A stretch of 45,296 nucleotides of DNA from a virus (Duplodnaviria; Heunggongvirae; Uroviricota; Caudoviricetes). The stretch is taken from the IMG/VR virus record IMGVR_UViG_2541047948_000009; one strand, 5' to 3'. Position numbers and translations under genes: made by a program. The notes below the pieces were generated by a model. That model made no database searches and was not told the DNA's origin. It worked only from the letters and a program-made list of their open reading frames with translations. Below, piece by piece: positions 7,152-42,629 of the stretch (positions are counted from its first letter, which is position 1; each line of letters begins with the position of its first letter).

Positions 7152-7844
7152 TTAATTGTGTCGCTTAAGGGTTTGTGACTGGCTGATTAAGACCTTTCCA
7201 AAGACCATAAACCGGTGTTCATTTTCGCTGGTAATTCCCCATTCACGGTAAATCTGGTTATCAGAAATCACCAGTAGTTTGTCAGGTATCATTTGCAGTC
7301 GTTTGACATAAATTTTATCATCAAAACCAAATACATAGATACCATCTCCATCAAACTGATTGATACTGACATCAACGAAGATGAGATCTCCTGGCTCAAT
7401 GGTTGGACACATACTGTCCCCACGAACGTTGATAACTTTAATGTGATTGGCTGGCCGTCCGCCAAACATCGATACAGCATTATCAGTTCTGTATTCAATG
7501 GCATGAATCACATCAATGACATCACCGCCCTGGATAAGGCCATTTCCCGCACTGGCACTGACATCCAGCATTTCAATACGGAATACATCCTTCACCTGCG
7601 CAACATCCTCACTAATACTGTTTTTACATACAGTATTACTTTTGAAGTCTGAGGTAAAGAGATCAGCAATATCAACACCTAAGCTCCTGGCAATATTACT
7701 CAGGGCTTGTTCAGTGAATTGTTTCTGCTTACCTGTTTCCAGGCGTGAGATATTCGCCGCATCCACTCCTATTGCTTCAGCGAGATCGGCGATTTTCATG
7801 TTCTTCGCCTGGCGAAGTTGTCTGACTCGGTTTCCTATGTTCAT
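7152..7844 (-). CDS. cI: CI-type prophage repressor (N-terminal XRE HTH, C-terminal S24 LexA-like autopeptidase domain)
   Basis: 230 aa; HTH QLRQAKNMKIADLAEAIGVDAANISRLETGK; C-terminal GDSM (Ser) and VKRL (Lys) catalytic-dyad motifs; divergent from cro. Confidence 0.85.
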   Translation of the reverse strand: MNIGNRVRQLRQAKNMKIADLAEAIGVDAANISRLETGKQKQFTEQALSNIARSLGVDIADLFTSDFKSNTVCKNSISEDVAQVKDVFRIEMLDVSASAGNGLIQGGDVIDVIHAIEYRTDNAVSMFGGRPANHIKVINVRGDSMCPTIEPGDLIFVDVSINQFDGDGIYVFGFDDKIYVKRLQMIPDKLLVISDNQIYREWGITSENEHRFMVFGKVLISQSQTLKRHN

Positions 7845-8378: not shown

Positions 8379-8747
8379 ATGATTTTACAGCGTGCTGCTG
8401 GCACTCACTACATTGCGGATGCTGTCGCACAGTCTGCTGGTGGGGTGTTTGTATCGCTTCCTGAAATTGAGGAAGTAGAGAACGCAGATATAAACCAGCG
8501 CCTGCTGGAAGTCATCGAACAGATCGGGAGTTACTCAAAGCAGATTCGTTCGGCAATCGAAGATGGGGTAGTGGAGCCACACGAGCAGACAGCAATTAAT
8601 GATGAATTGTATCTGTCAATTTCGAAGCTCCAGGAGCATGCGGCACTGGTCTACAAAATTTTCTGCGCTCCAGAAAAGAGTGACGCCCGCGAGTGTGCAG
8701 CTCCGGGCGTCGTGGCGTTTTGTGTCTGTGGAGAAACTAACGCATGA
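8379..8747 (+). CDS. CII-like regulatory protein (tentative)
   Basis: 122 aa ORF in the CII position after cro; family assignment is by position and loose resemblance only. Confidence 0.35.
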   Translation: MILQRAAGTHYIADAVAQSAGGVFVSLPEIEEVENADINQRLLEVIEQIGSYSKQIRSAIEDGVVEPHEQTAINDELYLSISKLQEHAALVYKIFCAPEKSDARECAAPGVVAFCVCGETNA

Positions 8748-9147
8748 ACAGTTTAACGGCAAATAACCGTTTGTCGCAACAGCTAGTGGTCAGTGTCGCT
8801 GCACACCTGTTGTTACGGCATGAATGCAGATTACCAAATCACCTGGCTGTAAGTAACCACAGAGAACTTTACCTGACTGTGGGGGGCGAGTTGTGCAGGA
8901 ACTTAACCGCTGGTTTCGTGACGGAAGAGGACTTTATGTTCATGTTATTCGTTGGGAGCCAGAAACACAGCGCGTTATCTATCTTCGCAAAGACTACCCG
9001 CATGAGTGCTTTAGTCCTTTGTGGAAATTCAGGCGTGATTTTGTTGAGTGTGAAGGACCACCAGCACATTGATTCTGCCATTCCGGGACGTTACACTGTT
9101 CAGGCACCTTATAAAGCGGGTGCCGGGCGTGGAAACCCGGAATTCAC

Positions 9148-9178
9148 CAAAGCGCACAACCGCGCTCTTGCGGTTTTT
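9148..9178 (+). terminator. Intrinsic terminator-like hairpin upstream of Rha
   Basis: AACCGC-gctctt-GCGGTT followed by TTTTTTTG. Confidence 0.4.
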
Positions 9179-9349
9179 TTGTGTCATGAGCAGCATTACG
9201 CCCAAATTATGGTGGGGCGTGCAGGGCCAACTTCGGTTGGGCCGGGTTCTTTGGTGACCGGTATTTCCACCCCTGTACGTCTCACCACCAATAAGGTCGT
9301 GGAAAGCCTTGGTGGTGAGTTATTAAAAATCACCAAAGAGGCTGCCATC

Positions 9350-9895
9350 ATGGCTACGATCCCAACCCTCACTCAACCTGAAATTGCCATCGTTGATGGT
9401 CAGGCTGTTACTTCATCCCTGGCTGTTGCCAACTTCTTCTCCAAACGTCATGACGATGTACTGAAAAAGATCCGCACGCTTGAATGTTCCGCATCATTCA
9501 CTGCCCGCAATTTTTCGGTGAGTGATTACACCGATTGCACAGGCCGCAAACTACCTTGCTATCAAATAACCCGCGACGGCTTTGCGTTTCTTGCTATGGG
9601 TTTCACGGGTAAACGTGCTGCCCAGTTCAAAGAGGCATACATCAATGCCTTTAACCAGATGGAGAAACAGCTTTCAAAGCCCGCTGTACCGAGCGACGTT
9701 GCACATAACGCCAGCGTTCTCTGTTCCTACATTTCATCAATTCATCAGGTCTGGCTGCAGCAGCTTTATCCTATGTTGGCAAAAGCCGAATCTCCGCTGG
9801 CTGTTAGCTTATATGACTATATTAATGATGCTTCGGCGCTGGCCTGCCTCATAAATTTGTCGCTGAACCCTTCAGAGGTAAGGGGGCGCAAATGA
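9350..9895 (+). CDS. Rha-family phage regulatory protein
   Basis: Start at the internal ATG 9350 (AAAGAGG RBS); N-terminus MATIPTLTQPEIAIVDGQAVTSSLAVANFFSKRHDDVLKKIRTL is typical of the Rha domain; the 5' extension of the track ORF looks non-coding. Confidence 0.7.
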   Translation: MATIPTLTQPEIAIVDGQAVTSSLAVANFFSKRHDDVLKKIRTLECSASFTARNFSVSDYTDCTGRKLPCYQITRDGFAFLAMGFTGKRAAQFKEAYINAFNQMEKQLSKPAVPSDVAHNASVLCSYISSIHQVWLQQLYPMLAKAESPLAVSLYDYINDASALACLINLSLNPSEVRGRK

Positions 9896-10933: not shown

Positions 10934-11422
10934 ATGAGTCTTTTGAATGAAGTTCAGAAATTCATTGAAGCCCATCCGGGGTGTACTTCCGGAGACATTG
11001 CAGATGCTTTTGCAGGTTACTCACGGCAGCGCGTTCTGCAGTCAGCAAGCAAGTTACGTCAGAGTGGGCGTGTGGCTCACCGTTGTGAAGGAGATACACG
11101 CAGACATTTCCCGCGCCTGACTGAGAGAGCGCAGGAGCCGGAACCACAACCAGTTCGTGAAACCAGACCTGTGCGCAATTTCTATGTCGGCACTAACGAT
11201 CCCCGGGTAATTTTGTGCCTGACCCGCCAGGCTGAAGAACTGGAGTCCAGGGGCTTATACCGTCGTGCTGCAACCGTGTGGATGGCGGCATTCCGTGAAA
11301 GCCACTCCCAGTCAGAACGAAACAATTTTCTGGCGCGCCGTGAGCGGTGCTTACGGAAAAGCAGCAAGCGCGCTGTATCGGGTGATGAGTGGTATCTGTC
11401 AGGGAATTACGTGTGGGCTTAA
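10934..11422 (+). CDS. Hypothetical regulator with possible PerC-like C-terminal region
   Basis: 162 aa; motif LESRGLYRRAATVWMAAFRE reminiscent of PerC-family activators (memory-based); coupled to neighbours. Confidence 0.35.
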   Translation: MSLLNEVQKFIEAHPGCTSGDIADAFAGYSRQRVLQSASKLRQSGRVAHRCEGDTRRHFPRLTERAQEPEPQPVRETRPVRNFYVGTNDPRVILCLTRQAEELESRGLYRRAATVWMAAFRESHSQSERNNFLARRERCLRKSSKRAVSGDEWYLSGNYVWA

Positions 11423-11748
11423 TGACGACGTTAACTCAATGCCAGCAGCAGGTGCTGGATATGCTGATTTCTTATCAGAAAGAACGTGGTTTCCCGCCAA
11501 CCAATCAGGAGGTGGCAGCCATGCTGGGATACCGTTCGGTGAATGCAGCGGTGGAGCATCTTCGCGCACTGGAGAAAAAAGGCGTCATCACGATAAAGCG
11601 TGGCGTGGCCCGGGGTATCACGCTTCATACCACAGTGAAGGACGACGACAGCGAGGCAGCCGGGATTATCCGTGCACTGCTTGCCGGTGAGGAAAACGCC
11701 AGACTGCGTGCAGCCCACTGGTTACATGAGAGGGGCCTGAAAGTATGA
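11422..11748 (+). CDS. LexA DNA-binding-domain-like protein lacking the peptidase domain
   Basis: Start at ATG 11422 (TAATG overlap); LTQCQQQVLDMLISYQKERGFPPTNQEVAAMLGYRSVNAAVEHLRALEKKGVI parallels the LexA N-terminal winged helix; no S24 domain follows. Confidence 0.6.
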   Translation: MTTLTQCQQQVLDMLISYQKERGFPPTNQEVAAMLGYRSVNAAVEHLRALEKKGVITIKRGVARGITLHTTVKDDDSEAAGIIRALLAGEENARLRAAHWLHERGLKV

Positions 11749-12952: not shown

Positions 12953-13948
12953 GTGACCGTGAGAGCACTACTGACCCCTGAAATTGCCCCGCGTATGGGG
13001 ATTGTATTGTTCAGGCCAGGTTCAGAGCTGATGCCCCTGTTTATGCAGGGGCGTGTCCTGCTGGAGCCTGAGCCGGAACGTTATTCATCTTTCGCCAGTG
13101 GTGCCGTTCCGGCGGCATCACAACCGCTGGCGGATGATCCTGCCGTTCGGGCCGTGTTCCGCAATGAGGCAGTGATCCGTCGTGCTGGTGGCGTGGAATG
13201 TCTTGAAAGCTGGTTACTTCGTGAAAAGGGCTGTCAGTGGCCTCATTCCGACTGGCACAGCGAGAACATGACCACAATGCGGCACGCTCCGGGAGCAATT
13301 CGTCTGTGCTGGCACTGCGATAACCAGCTGCGTGACCAGTTCACGGAACGGCTGGAATCAATGGCAACGGATAACTGTGCCCGCTGGGTGTTGTCTGTCG
13401 TGCGTCGGGATCTCGGTTTTGATGACAGTCACGTTGTGACAATGCCGGAACTGTGCTGGTGGCTGGTTCGTAATGATTTGGCGGATGCCTTACCGGAAAG
13501 TGCAGCCCGTAAGGCACTGAGATTACCGAAGCCTGTTGTGCCATCTGTCACCCGGGAAAGTGACCTTGTGCCTTCGGTTCCTGCCACCAGCATCATCCAG
13601 GATAAAGCGAAAAAGGTGCTGGCGCTGAAAGTGGATCCGGAGTCGCCGGAGTCTTTTATGTTACGCCCCAAACGTCGCCGCTGGGTTAATGAAAAGTACA
13701 CGCGCTGGGTTAAGACGCAGCCGTGCGCATGTTGTGGAAAGCCAGCTGATGATCCCCACCACCTGATAGGCCACGGTCAGGGTGGAATGGGTACAAAAGC
13801 GCATGATCTCTTTGTGTTGCCTTTGTGCAGAAAGCATCACGACGAGCTGCATGCGGATACCGTGACATTTGAAGAGAAGTATGGCTCCCAACTGGAGCTG
13901 ATATTTCGTTTTATCGATCGTGCGCTGGCAATTGGCGTACTGGCGTAA
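12953..13948 (+). CDS. DUF968-like nin-region protein with C-terminal Cys/His (HNH-like) motif
   Basis: 331 aa; C-terminal CACCGKPADDPHHLIGHGQGGMGTKAHD...LCRKHHDELH; GTG start (or GTG 12959 with GGTGA RBS). Confidence 0.5.
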   Translation: MTVRALLTPEIAPRMGIVLFRPGSELMPLFMQGRVLLEPEPERYSSFASGAVPAASQPLADDPAVRAVFRNEAVIRRAGGVECLESWLLREKGCQWPHSDWHSENMTTMRHAPGAIRLCWHCDNQLRDQFTERLESMATDNCARWVLSVVRRDLGFDDSHVVTMPELCWWLVRNDLADALPESAARKALRLPKPVVPSVTRESDLVPSVPATSIIQDKAKKVLALKVDPESPESFMLRPKRRRWVNEKYTRWVKTQPCACCGKPADDPHHLIGHGQGGMGTKAHDLFVLPLCRKHHDELHADTVTFEEKYGSQLELIFRFIDRALAIGVLA

Positions 13949-15342: not shown

Positions 15343-15642
15343 AAAAATTCCTTAATACTGATAACTGGGCGCACTATACACACGTTCCTGAAGAAAGCTA
15401 TAGTTTTTTGATGGGGTTGAAGATGGCTGGATGTCTAAAATAAACATTGCTTCATATGTTCAACTATGCGTTAATGATTGCGTCGGTTTGAAGAACAGAC
15501 GATATACGAAGTAGTTTACTAAAGCAGTTCTCATTTCAGGTGTTATTCACTTATTCCTTCTTTGAGTCTCTCCAATTAAGTACGAAGTCGTTTCTGTTAT
15601 ACAAGCCATTTATGCCGAAAGGCTCAAGTTAAGGAATGTAGA

Positions 15643-15858
15643 ATGTCAAATAAAATGACTGGTTTAGTAAAATGGTTTAACGCTGATAAAGGTTTTGGCT
15701 TTATTTCTCCTGTTGATGGTAGTAAAGATGTGTTTGTGCATTTTTCTGCGATTCAGAATGATAATTTTCGAACCTTATTTGAAGGTCAAAAGGTTACCTT
15801 CTCTGTAGAGAGTGGTGCTAAAGGTCCTGCAGCAGCAAATGTCATAATTACTGATTAA
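15643..15858 (+). CDS. cspB: Cold-shock protein CspB-like
   Basis: 71 aa; [38 protein letters not shown] with RNP1/RNP2 motifs; long AT-rich 5' UTR typical of csp genes. Confidence 0.85.
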
Positions 15859-16140
15859 AATTCATAGTTTGTCTGTATACGATAACGAAGAAGGCTGATG
15901 CCTGAGTGGAGATACAGACAGAGTGGTGAATATTGGATCTCTTTAATAAATAGTAAGGAGGTCCAATACATGAAACAATGGCCAGCATATTTGGCAATAA
16001 CTTAATCAGGAAAAGTATGCTAACCATTGTGGTGAAGTGCAGGTTTGCTGCATGAATAGTTTTACAGCAGAAGCTAACTGCTGGCATAGCAAAACAAAGT
16101 GCGTAAGTGGATGACTCCCACAAAAAGTACCACAATATTA

Positions 16141-18731: not shown

Positions 18732-19091
18732 ATTAATATTAAATCGGATTATTTTTAGCGCTGAATGTGAAATTTAAATAAAAAGGACTCTTCCATGAGT
18801 CAAAATCCTTGAAATCTTAAGGGTAAGATAAAAGGTCATTAGACAGAATGACACGTTTTATTAATAAATAAAGCTATTGTTTCATTCGTGTGTTTTTCTT
18901 TACAAAAGTAATCCTTGCTATGGTTGGTTAATCATGCGTTAATGGTGTTCTGGTTTGTTACAAAATTATCTGAAGCAGTCATTGTTATAATTTTATTATT
19001 TGTACCTCTTGAGATTTCCTTGTTGGTTTTTCTCTCTGATATTTTTTTTCGGACCATTCTGCCCAAGGGCTAACTTCTTCAAAAGGTAATA

Positions 19092-19307
19092 ATGATGTCT
19101 AACAAAATGACTGGTTTAGTGAAATGGTTTAACCCTGAAAAAGGTTTTGGTTTCATCACGCCGAAAGATGGTAGCAAAGATGTGTTTGTGCATTTCTCAG
19201 CTATTCAGAGCAACGATTTCAAAACGTTAACTGAGAATCAGGAAGTCGAATTTGGTATTGAGAACGGACCTAAAGGCCCTGCAGCTGTTCATGTAGTGGC
19301 ACTTTGA
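19092..19307 (+). CDS. cspI: Cold-shock protein CspI-like
   Basis: [70 protein letters not shown] matches the recalled CspI sequence. Confidence 0.85.
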
Positions 19308-19512
19308 GGTAGAAAATATTACAAACCATATTCACTTTAGATGCCCGTGTTGCCATGGTTCTCAGTATAGAACATCATCTTTTGATGTTTCTGACAGAAA
19401 TCCTTTCGGGGCAAAATGTATCTTTTGTAAATCAATGATGATTACATTTGATAATATTTCACAATACTTAAATGTTAGCCATCTGTCGTTAGATTTAAGA
19501 AAGTGAAAATGA

Positions 19513-19808: not shown

Positions 19809-19980
19809 TTTGATTCTAATGCATTGATAATAAATGATAATCATCTTTATCTGTTTGTGTGAAATTTAGACCGTCGTATGTTGATTATTGCGATGTTTCA
19901 TCTTATCTTTTATACGTTTGCTCCATATAATTGACACTACTGTGTACCAGGACAGTCATAACAGACTAAAAGAGGAAATG

Positions 19981-34071: not shown

Positions 34072-34770
34072 ATGCAGGATATTCCACAGGAAACACATCA
34101 TGAGACGACACGCCTCACTCAGTCAGCCCAGGTGGTGCTCTGGGAAATCGATCTGACAGAGGTCGGTGGTGAACGTTATTTTTTCTGTAATGAGCAGAAC
34201 GAAAAAGGTGAGCCGGTTATCTGGCAGGGGCGGCAGTATCAGGTATACCCCATTCAGGGGACGGGATTTGAACTGAACGGCAAGGGCAGTGCTGCCCGTC
34301 CGACACTGACGGTTTCTAACCTGTACGGTATGGTCACCGGGATGGCGGAAGATCTGCAGAGTCTGGTCGGCGGAACGGTGGTCCGGCGTAAGGTTTACGC
34401 CCGTTTTCTGGATGCGGTGAACTTCGTCAACGGAAACAGTGACGCCGATCCGGAGCAGGAGGTGATCAGCCGCTGGCGCATTGAGCAGTGCAGCGAACTG
34501 AGCGCGGTGAGTGCCTCTTTTGTACTGTCCACGCCGACGGAAACGGACGGCGCTGTTTTTCCGGGACGTATCATGCTGGCCAACACCTGCACCTGGACCT
34601 ATCGCGGTGATGAGTGCGGTTATCACGGTCCGGCAGTCGCGGATGAATATGACCAGCCGACGTCCGATATCACGAAGGATAAATGCAGCAAATGCCTGAG
34701 CGGCTGTAAGTTTCGCAATAACGTCGGCAACTTTGGCGGCTTCCTTTCCATTAACAAACTTTCGCAGTAA
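34072..34770 (+). CDS. L: Minor tail protein L
   Basis: 232 aa, same length as lambda L; C-terminal Cys cluster. Confidence 0.9.
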   Translation: MQDIPQETHHETTRLTQSAQVVLWEIDLTEVGGERYFFCNEQNEKGEPVIWQGRQYQVYPIQGTGFELNGKGSAARPTLTVSNLYGMVTGMAEDLQSLVGGTVVRRKVYARFLDAVNFVNGNSDADPEQEVISRWRIEQCSELSAVSASFVLSTPTETDGAVFPGRIMLANTCTWTYRGDECGYHGPAVADEYDQPTSDITKDKCSKCLSGCKFRNNVGNFGGFLSINKLSQ

Positions 34771-40250: not shown

Positions 40251-42629
40251 ATGGCAGCAGTAAAAATCTCAGGTGTGCTGAAAGATGGTGCGGGAAAACC
40301 AATACAGAACTGCACTATTCAACTGAAGGCAAAGCGTAACAGCACCACGGTACTGGTGAACACGGTGGCCTCTGAAAATCCGGATGAAGCCGGGCGTTAC
40401 AGCATGGATGTTGAGTATGGTCAGTACAGCGTCACCCTGCTGGTTGAAGGTTTTCCGCCTTCACATGCCGGGACCATTACCGTCTATGAAGGTTCCAGAC
40501 CAGGTACGCTGAATGATTTTCTCGGTGCCATGACGGAAGATGATGTCATGCCGGAGGCATTGCGTCGTTTTGAGGCAATGGTGGAAGAAGCGGCACGCAA
40601 CGCCGAAGCCGCCTCTCAGAGCGCAGCAGCGGCAAAGAAATCCGAAACTGCAGCGGCATCATCGAAGAACGCGGCGAAAACCTCAGAAACAAATGCAGCT
40701 AACAGCGCACAGGCGGCAGCGTCCTCGCAGACTGCATCGGCAAACTCCGCGACAGCAGCCAAAAAATCAGAAACCAACGCGAAAAATAGCGAGACAGCCG
40801 CAAAGACGAGCGAAACCAACGCAAAGTCCAGCCAGACGGCAGCGAAAACAAGCGAAACGAATGCCAAAGCCAGTGAAACTGCGGCAAAAAACAGCCAGGT
40901 TGCAGCAGCCCAAAGCGCGAGCGCGGCAGCCGGTTCTGCGACTTCAGCAGCTGGATCAGCAACTGCTGCGGCTAACAGCCAGAAAGCTGCGAAGACGAGT
41001 GAAACTAACGCAAAGTCCAGCCAGACGGCAGCGAAGACCAGCGAAACGAATGCCAAAGCCAGCGAAACTGCGGCGAAAAACAGTCAGGATGCAGCAGCCC
41101 AAAGCGAGAGTGCTGCAGCTGGTTCTGCAAGCGCGGCGGCTGCTTCTGCCACTGCATCAGCCAACAGTCAAAAAGCAGCAAAAACCAGTGAAACCAATGC
41201 AAAGACAAGCGAGACTGCAGCGGCGAACTCGGCGAAAGCATCCGCTGCAAGCCAGACCGCTGCAAAAGCAAGTGAAGACGCAGCCAGAGAGTATGCAAGC
41301 CAGGCAGCAGATCCGTATAAATATGTCTTACAGCCGCTGCCTGATGTGTGGATACCGTTTAACGATTCACTGGATATGATTACGGGCTTTTTGCCATCAT
41401 ATAAAAAGATTGTTATTGGTGACGACGAAATAACGATGCCTGGCGACAAGATTGTTAAGTTTAAACGTGCATCGAAAGCAACCTATATTAACAAATCTGG
41501 TGTGCTGACAGAGGCTGCCATTGATGAGCCACGATTTGAACGTGATGGCCTGCTTATTGAGGGGCAAAGAACTAATCTTCTGCTTAATTCAACAAATCCA
41601 TCTAAATGGAATAAGTCAGGCAATCTGGAACTCACAGAAATATCCACGGATTCTTTTAATTTTACTTATGGGAGATTTACTGTAAAAGATACTCTTATTG
41701 GTCAGACAAGTGCTATTAATATCGTAACGATTTCTGGCAGTAAAGGGTTTGATGTCACAGGTGATGAAAAATATGTGACCATTTCATGCCGTGTAAGAAG
41801 TGATGTTGAAAATATAAGGTGTCGTTTAAGATTTGAACACCATGATGGTTATACTTACACTTTTTTGGGAGATGCTTACCTCAATTTATCAACACTTGTA
41901 ATTGATAAAACTGGTACTGCTGCAGACCGTATTATTGCAAAGGCTGTAAAAGATGAGGTTACTGGTTGGATTTTCTATCAGGCTACAATTAATGCACTAG
42001 ATACAGAGAGCATGATTGGTGCGATGGTTCAATACGCTCCTGTAAAAGGTTCAGGTACAGCATCTGGAGACTATCTGGATATCGCAACTCCACAAGTGGA
42101 AGGTGGATCAAGTGCTTCGTCATTTATTGTAACTGATATAACTGCAAGCACTCGCGCAAGCGATATGGTGACAGTCCCAATCAAGAATAACCTTTATAAT
42201 CTTCCTTTTACGGTTCTTTGTGAGGTACATAAGAACTGGTATAAAACGCCAAATGCAGCACCGCGTGTTTTTGATACCGGCGGTCATCAAACCGGAGCGG
42301 CTATTATTCTTGGCTTCGGTCGTTCAACAGATTACGACGGATTTCCTTATTGTGATATAGGTTTGGCTAACAGACGGGTAAACGAAAACGCATCGCTTGA
42401 AAAAATGGTTATGGGGATGCGTGTAAAGTCAGATCAGTCTACGTGCTCAGTAAGTAACGGGCGTATATCCAGCGAAAAGAAAGCCACATGGTCCTATATT
42501 CAGAACTCCGCAATTATCCGTATTGGAGGCCAGACTACAGCCGGGTTGCGTCATTTATTTGGTCATGTCAGGAATTTCAGAATATGGCACAAGGCATTGA
42601 CTGATGCTCAGATGGGGGAGTCAATCTAA
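40251..42629 (+). CDS. stf: Side tail fibre protein (lambda Stf-like N-terminus, repetitive Ala/Ser/Thr shaft, divergent AT-rich C-terminal receptor-binding domain)
   Basis: N-terminus MAAVKISGVLKDGAGKPIQNCTIQLKAKRNSTT matches recalled lambda Stf; AAKTSETNAK-type repeats; C-terminal about 430 aa are AT-rich and end with a LamG/ConA-like motif (GHVRNFRIWHKALTDAQMGE). Confidence 0.85.
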   Translation: MAAVKISGVLKDGAGKPIQNCTIQLKAKRNSTTVLVNTVASENPDEAGRYSMDVEYGQYSVTLLVEGFPPSHAGTITVYEGSRPGTLNDFLGAMTEDDVMPEALRRFEAMVEEAARNAEAASQSAAAAKKSETAAASSKNAAKTSETNAANSAQAAASSQTASANSATAAKKSETNAKNSETAAKTSETNAKSSQTAAKTSETNAKASETAAKNSQVAAAQSASAAAGSATSAAGSATAAANSQKAAKTSETNAKSSQTAAKTSETNAKASETAAKNSQDAAAQSESAAAGSASAAAASATASANSQKAAKTSETNAKTSETAAANSAKASAASQTAAKASEDAAREYASQAADPYKYVLQPLPDVWIPFNDSLDMITGFLPSYKKIVIGDDEITMPGDKIVKFKRASKATYINKSGVLTEAAIDEPRFERDGLLIEGQRTNLLLNSTNPSKWNKSGNLELTEISTDSFNFTYGRFTVKDTLIGQTSAINIVTISGSKGFDVTGDEKYVTISCRVRSDVENIRCRLRFEHHDGYTYTFLGDAYLNLSTLVIDKTGTAADRIIAKAVKDEVTGWIFYQATINALDTESMIGAMVQYAPVKGSGTASGDYLDIATPQVEGGSSASSFIVTDITASTRASDMVTVPIKNNLYNLPFTVLCEVHKNWYKTPNAAPRVFDTGGHQTGAAIILGFGRSTDYDGFPYCDIGLANRRVNENASLEKMVMGMRVKSDQSTCSVSNGRISSEKKATWSYIQNSAIIRIGGQTTAGLRHLFGHVRNFRIWHKALTDAQMGESI
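40801..41178. repeat. Two near-identical tandem copies of an about 189-bp unit inside the stf shaft-coding region
   Basis: Units starting near 40801 and 40990 are about 90% identical at nucleotide level; encoded AAKTSETNAKSSQTAAKTSETNAKASETAAKNSQ repeated. Confidence 0.6.

Follow-up and report, generated by a model that had tools for sequence, protein, structure and literature searches.

A prophage-encoded LexA-family protein without the S24 peptidase domain, a possible RecA-insensitive stand-in for LexA in lambdoid prophages of Escherichia coli and Shigella

The analysed window, which is the whole 45,296-nucleotide stretch of IMG/VR record IMGVR_UViG_2541047948_000009, carried on its plus strand a gene (11422-11748, stop codon included) for a 108-aa LexA-family protein that lacks the S24 peptidase domain. 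The protein combines the DNA-binding domain of LexA with a conserved C-terminal tail, and the gene is under purifying selection. Judging from the sequence, we give a probability of about one half to the reading that this protein would take the place of LexA at SOS boxes and be insensitive to RecA.

The open reading frame was intact, with an ATG at 11422 and a TGA ending at 11748 (108 codons in the ORF list and the translation), and these limits were exactly those given in the original prediction. In-frame GTG codons were present upstream at 11389 and 11413. Position 11422 was taken as the likely start because the similarity to LexA begins there (MTTLT compared with MKALT). Both ends of the gene overlapped a neighbour. 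The stop codon of the upstream PerC-family ORF (10934-11422, 162 aa) shared one base with the start codon in the sequence TAATG (11420-11424, +), and the start codon of RusA (11745) overlapped the stop codon in the sequence ATGA (11745-11748, +). Both overlaps were read directly in the sequence, which bore out the earlier proposal of translational coupling in an operon, here the one between the replication genes and Q. An overlap at the RusA junction was found in 67 of the 72 related IMG/VR loci and in three diverged loci (42-47% identity). Overlapping stop and start codons were also found at the neighbouring PerC-family/dam junction. No sigma-70-like promoter was predicted directly upstream of the LexA-like gene, and the -35 element corresponding to that of the putative SfV dam promoter was weaker in the window. 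Given this lack of a predicted promoter of its own, and given that cro and the replication genes precede the gene and that its reading frame overlaps those of its neighbours, we infer that, once the prophage is induced or a cell is infected, the rightward early promoter would drive its expression together with the delayed-early genes.

Residues 1-69 (11422-11628, +) form a LexA-type winged helix-turn-helix, with helices at residues 6-22, 28-35 and 40-52 and wing strands at 56-58 and 66-68, and the recognition helix is RSVNAAVEHLRAL. The original prediction had aligned the product to the N-terminal winged helix of LexA, and the domain search agreed with it: Pfam PF01726 (LexA_DNA_bind) was covered end to end (1-65 of 65, E = 3.4e-19, 68.8 bits, cut-off 23.7). 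BLASTP against residues 1-68 of E. coli LexA gave 51% identity (E = 2e-21). In a PDB sequence search the top matches were all LexA, the best being the LexA DNA-binding domain 1lea (E = 8e-16). The AlphaFold2 model of the protein (mean pLDDT 82) had three helices and a two-strand wing, and it superposed on 1lea and 3jso at 1.1-1.3 Å.

According to the summary of the LexA–DNA crystal structure in PMC11442139, E. coli LexA contacts the CTGT half-site mainly through S39, N41, A42 and E45. The four residues named in that summary were all present in the LexA-like protein, and they were also kept by most diverged family members. Within the enterobacterial family S39 and N41 were invariant, E45 was at least 90% conserved, and A42 varied in a few members. 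The wing residues R64, G65 and I66 were invariant across the family. Two positions of the recognition helix differed from LexA. The substitution P40V was invariant in the enterobacterial family, and position 40 was variable in the diverged members; E44V was nearly invariant in the enterobacterial family, and none of the members examined had an acidic residue at position 44. In the LexA408 variant, position 40 plays a part in specificity.

The protein stops at residue 108 and the S24 domain was absent, as had been predicted: Peptidase_S24 was unmatched in the Pfam search, and NCBIfam TIGR00498 (lexA) was matched only over model positions 1-91 of 203, with 67.6 bits against a cut-off of 110.95. 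There is therefore no catalytic Ser/Lys pair, and self-cleavage is impossible. The label 'LexA repressor', used in many records, should not be applied to this protein, because the S24 domain is the defining feature of LexA proper. The HMMER alignment placed A88-G89-E90 opposite the LexA cleavage site A84-G85-E86. This motif is probably not a cleavage site, since it varies in the family (ANE, VGE), is predicted to be helical and has no catalytic domain in cis.

The description of the product as a LexA DNA-binding domain without the autoprotease held for the winged helix and for the missing S24 domain, but the protein is not a bare domain and has a conserved tail of 40 residues. Residues 70-108 (11629-11745, +) comprise a short acidic linker and a predicted helical hairpin, with helices at 75-87 and 93-103 in the AlphaFold2 model. 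The pLDDT of the hairpin helices was 86-88 by block, in a monomer prediction with a pTM of 0.56. The tail has the family-specific sequence EAxGIIRALLAGEENARLRAxHWLHERG and its conservation extended to relatives of only about 42% identity, A97 and L101 being invariant. A PDB sequence search with residues 70-108 returned no significant relative. In fold searches with the model, the winged-helix part alone was matched convincingly, so that in these searches the tail resembled no known module. The tail is not LexA-derived, and the modelled hairpin is possibly a dimerisation module.

The LexA-like gene is common, and it is already annotated as 'LexA family protein'. An identical protein (100%) was found in E. 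coli S88, where its RefSeq entry is WP_000210132.1, and in APEC O1, under the names 'LexA family protein' or 'LexA repressor'. The gene was present in 2233 of 5426 complete E. coli genomes (41%), with up to four copies per genome. It was also present in 50 phage records, among them SfV (orf42), SfII, SfIV, mEp460, cdtI and 2H10; the Stx phages with the gene included fifteen Stx2c phages, Stx2a_1447/WGPS2 and one Stx2k phage. Residues 1-108, tail included, aligned with positions 1-106 of the 106 in the profile of PHROG 362 (E = 3.5e-58), which is named 'transcriptional repressor'. The exhaustive HMMER search gave 4691 proteins at E ≤ 1e-3, including members of 105-135 aa that shared the tail at 40-49% identity (P0122, P0125, P0126, P0127, P0136, P0156, P0182, P0201 and P0217). 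Three of these diverged lineages (42-47% identity) were placed on contigs, and their gene order was replication genes, LexA-like gene, RusA, DUF968 and Q. A single-protein scan detected seven loci, namely two in Shigella (94-95%), one short partial fragment and four distant ones (44-54%).

Pooled over 63 unique intact alleles, pN/pS was 0.09 for the whole gene, 0.033 for the DNA-binding domain and 0.17 for the tail. These low values showed strong purifying selection and indicated that the gene is functional and that both halves of the protein are constrained. Many short phage proteins carrying the LexA DNA-binding domain alone were found in BFVD, and the LexA-like protein falls in this broad, already catalogued class. 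The same family is pham 237 of Stx phages (PMC8136144). PHROG 362, the NCBI name 'LexA family protein' and pham 237 (PMC8136144) are annotation labels only, and the literature search yielded no functional study of the enterobacterial LexA-like gene. A part in an anti-phage defence system was also considered and rejected, as PADLOC gave only a marginal winged-helix match for the protein.

The LexA-like gene behaves as an optional, swappable cassette between the replication genes and Q in SfV/mEp460-type lambdoid prophages. Among the 80 IMG/VR loci with the RusA type of the window, 72 carried the LexA-like gene, and in 8 dam was joined to RusA by an ATGA overlap. Three cassette orders were thus observed: PerC–dam–LexA-like–RusA in SfV, PerC–LexA-like–RusA in the window, and PerC–dam–RusA in the eight loci without the LexA-like gene (L389, L393, L403, L412, L419, L425, L438 and L447). 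The window has no dam, and its LexA-like ATG was located at exactly the start position of dam in SfV. The junction sequence was common to all three orders (window 11420-11424, corresponding to SfV, L003, 29612-29616). The region from the replication genes to Q is a mosaic of cassettes, each linked to the next where a stop codon overlaps a start codon. After the LexA-like gene, the order in the window was RusA–KilA-N–DUF968–Q, and the gene was located just upstream of Q in every lineage examined. Both DLP12-type loci and the eight dam–RusA loci provided examples of RusA and DUF968 without the LexA-like gene. The DUF968 protein adjoining Q (12953-13948, +) matched Pfam HNHc_6 barely over the cut-off (E = 4e-6, 26.9 bits, cut-off 26.6) and had a sub-threshold match to the RecA-dependent nuclease (P1 Ref-like) family, which suggests a putative nuclease working with RusA.

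Candidate operators were scored with an SOS-box matrix (PSSM) of 31 E. coli operators. The scores are approximate; the top sites were unambiguous TACTG-N10-CAGTA palindromes. A scan of the prophage for SOS-box-like sites had been proposed with the original prediction, and it gave one strong site. This candidate operator, TACTGTTTTTACATACAGTA at 7616-7635, was the sole strong canonical SOS box in the window and scored 24.9 bits, compared with a best score of 21.5 in 200 shuffles and 10.4 for the next-best site of the window. It was located inside the S24-type cI repressor gene (about 7152-7844, minus strand), in the part coding for the linker between the HTH and S24 domains. In the cI gene of another locus (L008, 71% protein identity), the box was an island of 18/20 identical bases within flanking DNA that did not align. 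This indicated that the DNA of the box is under selection. The cI-internal box was observed at L008 836-855, L203 2812, L139 11649 and L118 1659, in genes whose cI proteins were 66-72% identical. No convincing promoter overlapping the box was found. A transcriptional roadblock and an internal or antisense promoter are possibilities for its function.

All 13 phage records with the cI allele of the window carried the LexA-like gene, and so did 12 of the 13 IMG/VR loci with enough flank. A dependence of the cI-internal box on the gene was nevertheless rejected, because the box was kept in four of the eight gene-less dam–RusA relatives and in L118. The co-occurrence of box and gene reflects linkage. 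The density of strong SOS boxes was 3.84 per 100 kb in loci with the gene, compared with 0.09 in DLP12-type RusA loci and 0.19 in lambda-cro loci. Eight matched sister loci without the gene had about 3.5 per 100 kb. An enrichment due to the LexA-like gene was rejected, as the matched gene-less relatives were about equally dense. The loci are also not phylogenetically independent. The rich SOS wiring is a property of the phage lineage and not of the gene. The loci L005-L007 possessed the gene and had no SOS box within 12 kb of it. Host LexA alone is sufficient to explain the phage-borne boxes; a second ligand, the phage protein, is neither needed to account for them nor contradicted by them.

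Strong boxes were found in the dinI promoter region of 2H10 and mEp460, in tandem. Others (21-24 bits) fell within the opening codons of a DNA methylase gene of the late region, downstream of Q, at 34170-34189 in SfV (L003), 41021-41040 in mEp460 (L004), 5503 in L063 and 15072 in L084; LexA operators are not usually placed there. In some variants, the 150-bp spacer between RusA and KilA-N contained a 22-24-bit SOS box, TACTGTATTTATGAACAGTG (L078 10765-10784, and also L063, L069, L070 and L071), and no promoter was predicted there. The corresponding gap in the window was only 20 bp and had no SOS box. In one diverged clade (L009, 5531-5579, and also L010), a sigma-70-like promoter, TTGCAA-17-AATAAT, was followed directly by the canonical SOS box ACCTGTACATTCATACAGTA. 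Promoter and box were located directly upstream of an operon in the order small ORF–LexA-like–RusA–DUF968–Q. In L009 they came just after an inserted toxin/immunity pair on the opposite strand. The arrangement implies that the expression of Q in this clade would be LexA-controlled and possibly autoregulated.

When CTGT-Nx-ACAG was counted in the window for x = 0-20, no spacing stood out; at spacing 8, three were observed against 0.69 expected and a shuffle maximum of 3. An operator with another half-site spacing was dropped, as these counts were uninformative. Exact CTGT-N8-ACAG matches also occurred at 8847-8862 (5.9 bits) and at 19940-19955 (9.2 bits, ~40 bp upstream of a gnsB-like gene). 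Both had GC-rich spacers, and they are probably chance matches.

Several RNA elements were detected elsewhere in the window. An isrK Hfq-binding RNA (Rfam, 67 bits; 9104-9180, +), a C4 antisense RNA (Rfam, 83.6 bits; 9205-9292, +) and a terminator-like hairpin (9158-9175) were all located inside a 383-aa ORF (8744-9895) whose product is named a 'Rha family' protein in RefSeq. The N-terminal roughly 200 codons of this ORF are probably non-coding, and the true Rha/antirepressor-like gene likely starts near 9342, under RNA control of the P1 c4/IsrK type. Two cspA-type thermoregulator 5' leaders were found on the plus strand at 15482-15921 (156 bits) and 18937-19353 (110 bits). They match the prophage cold-shock genes (cspB-like and cspI-like) that flank the lysis genes in a Qin-like late region.

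The original prediction had proposed an uncleavable competitor at SOS boxes, which is plausible and agrees with the reading preferred here. If the protein is a RecA-insensitive stand-in, it would act as follows. Two copies would bind CTGT-N8-ACAG operators, held together through the hairpin or through contacts between the DNA-binding domains on the DNA. Cleavage of LexA lowers its DNA affinity and exposes signals for degradation by ClpXP and Lon (PMC3159453). The LexA-like protein should escape this route, because its C-terminus is ...GLKV and not an end generated by cleavage. Being unable to cleave itself, it would persist once host LexA had been cleaved and degraded. It would then re-occupy SOS operators on the host chromosome and in resident prophages, and LexA-controlled phage promoters would be repressed again. 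The SOS regulon would thereby be damped or reset in a manner that RecA* could not reverse. The complete proposal is that a dimeric, RecA*-proof LexA surrogate made early in lytic growth re-imposes SOS repression, as a phage-driven off-switch carried by numerous lambdoid prophages of E. coli and Shigella, Stx2a, Stx2c and Stx2k phages among them, and that in L009-like clades it also autoregulates its own Q operon. We offer this complete form tentatively and regard it as less likely than not.

The stand-in reading is favoured by the retained base-contact residues, the absence of a self-cleavage domain and the purifying selection. It is also favoured by the 51% identity of the protein to E. coli LexA, to which it is far closer than to the re-targeted GIL01 gp6. 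The promoter and SOS box of L009 and L010 have the layout expected under LexA control and autoregulation. On the other side, the recognition helix differs from LexA by P40V and E44V, LexA dimerises through a domain that is missing here and for which the hairpin is a modelled substitute, and the phage-borne SOS boxes do not track the LexA-like gene. By analogy, GIL01 gp6 shows that truncated LexA homologues can gain another operator and activate transcription (PMC6182141).

The case of gp6 is the basis of a different explanation, which we regard as rather unlikely but worth weighing: the LexA-like protein may have drifted to a phage-specific, non-SOS operator and may activate or repress a phage promoter as a dedicated regulator, for example in the timing of late or accessory genes. 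The truncated LexA homologue gp6 recognises GaCACAnnTGTGaC and is an activator of the late promoter P3 (PMC6182141). The changes at positions 40 and 44 of the recognition helix, the constant position just upstream of Q and the PHROG 362 label, which is only 'transcriptional repressor', would all agree with such a role. However, a re-targeted protein would not be expected to keep all four base-reading residues of LexA, no alternative conserved palindrome appeared among the CTGT-Nx-ACAG spacings of 0-20 in the window, and a gene that is optional in its own lineage is a poor fit to an essential late-gene activator. The overlap-type coupling to RusA, kept at 42-47% identity, together with the HNHc_6 match of DUF968 just over the cut-off and its sub-threshold match to a RecA-dependent nuclease, could instead point to a DNA-binding accessory of a coupled recombination and repair module (RusA resolvase and DUF968/HNH-like nuclease) that is not a transcription factor. 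This is improbable: the fold is a winged helix that reads operators in a sequence-specific manner, with conserved base-contact residues, RusA and DUF968 occur without the gene, and the coupling is not specific to it because the PerC-family/dam junction overlaps as well.

We give very little credence to an antagonist of LexA, that is, a weak monomer that competes with or titrates host LexA, represses poorly and so leaves SOS or LexA-controlled prophage functions partly on. The missing dimerisation domain and the LexA-controlled elements of the lineage, such as the tandem boxes at dinI in 2H10 and mEp460, would suit this role. Yet an operator that overlaps a promoter normally represses once occupied, whatever protein binds it, a monomer that binds weakly would fail to displace the LexA dimer, and the conservation of the tail points to a folded module for oligomerisation or interaction. 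Some database entries of the family are frameshifted or fused (P0024, P0031 and P0079), as would be seen for a decaying, functionless fragment of a captured lexA gene. Such decay is effectively refuted by selection and conservation, given the pN/pS of 0.09 with all 63 unique alleles intact, the conservation of a tail that did not come from LexA, the synteny kept down to about 42% identity and the presence of the gene in 2233 of 5426 complete E. coli genomes.

If the LexA-like protein is an uncleavable SOS repressor, lysogens would respond differently to DNA-damaging antibiotics, with effects on mutagenesis, filamentation, induction of other prophages and possibly Stx release, and the lexA(Ind-) phenotype would have in this gene a natural counterpart that can be transferred. 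If it works as an off-switch, host repair, mutagenesis and the LexA-controlled functions of co-resident prophages would be reshaped. If it is a private regulator like gp6, it would represent a second, independent capture of a LexA domain with a changed role. As a small soluble protein with known candidate operators, it offers a simple test case for the rewiring of a host master regulator by a phage.

Compared with the DNA-binding domain of E. coli LexA (1lea, 3jso), the LexA-like protein has the same winged helix-turn-helix and keeps R64-G65-I66 and S39/N41/A42/E45. It differs from LexA in having no S24 peptidase/dimerisation domain and therefore neither Ser119 nor Lys156, in the substitutions P40V and E44V, and in its hairpin tail. 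LexA is encoded by an autoregulated chromosomal gene, whereas the LexA-like gene belongs to a phage early operon. The N-terminal fragment of LexA (residues 1-84) and the lexA(Ind-) alleles are functional analogues, in that each would provide a DNA-binding module that RecA* cannot inactivate. However, the fragment binds DNA less tightly and is degraded by ClpXP and Lon (PMC3159453), whereas the LexA-like protein is a stand-alone, selected gene product with another C-terminus and an added helical module. The Ind- proteins, in contrast, retain the dimerisation domain. The nearest precedent is gp6 of the Bacillus thuringiensis tectivirus GIL01, the only truncated phage LexA that has been characterised, which acts as an activator at the late promoter P3 (PMC6182141). 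Both proteins are phage-encoded and have a LexA DNA-binding domain without the protease domain, and gp6 acts beside host LexA in the lytic switch, as is proposed here for the LexA-like protein. BLASTP gave no alignment between the two at E ≤ 100, which indicated an independent capture, in this case from a proteobacterial LexA. The two also differ in size and composition, gp6 having 66 aa and no tail and the LexA-like protein 108 aa with a tail. A transcriptional activator, gp6 reads a palindrome of its own by means of K38, while the LexA-like protein keeps base-reading residues of the host type.
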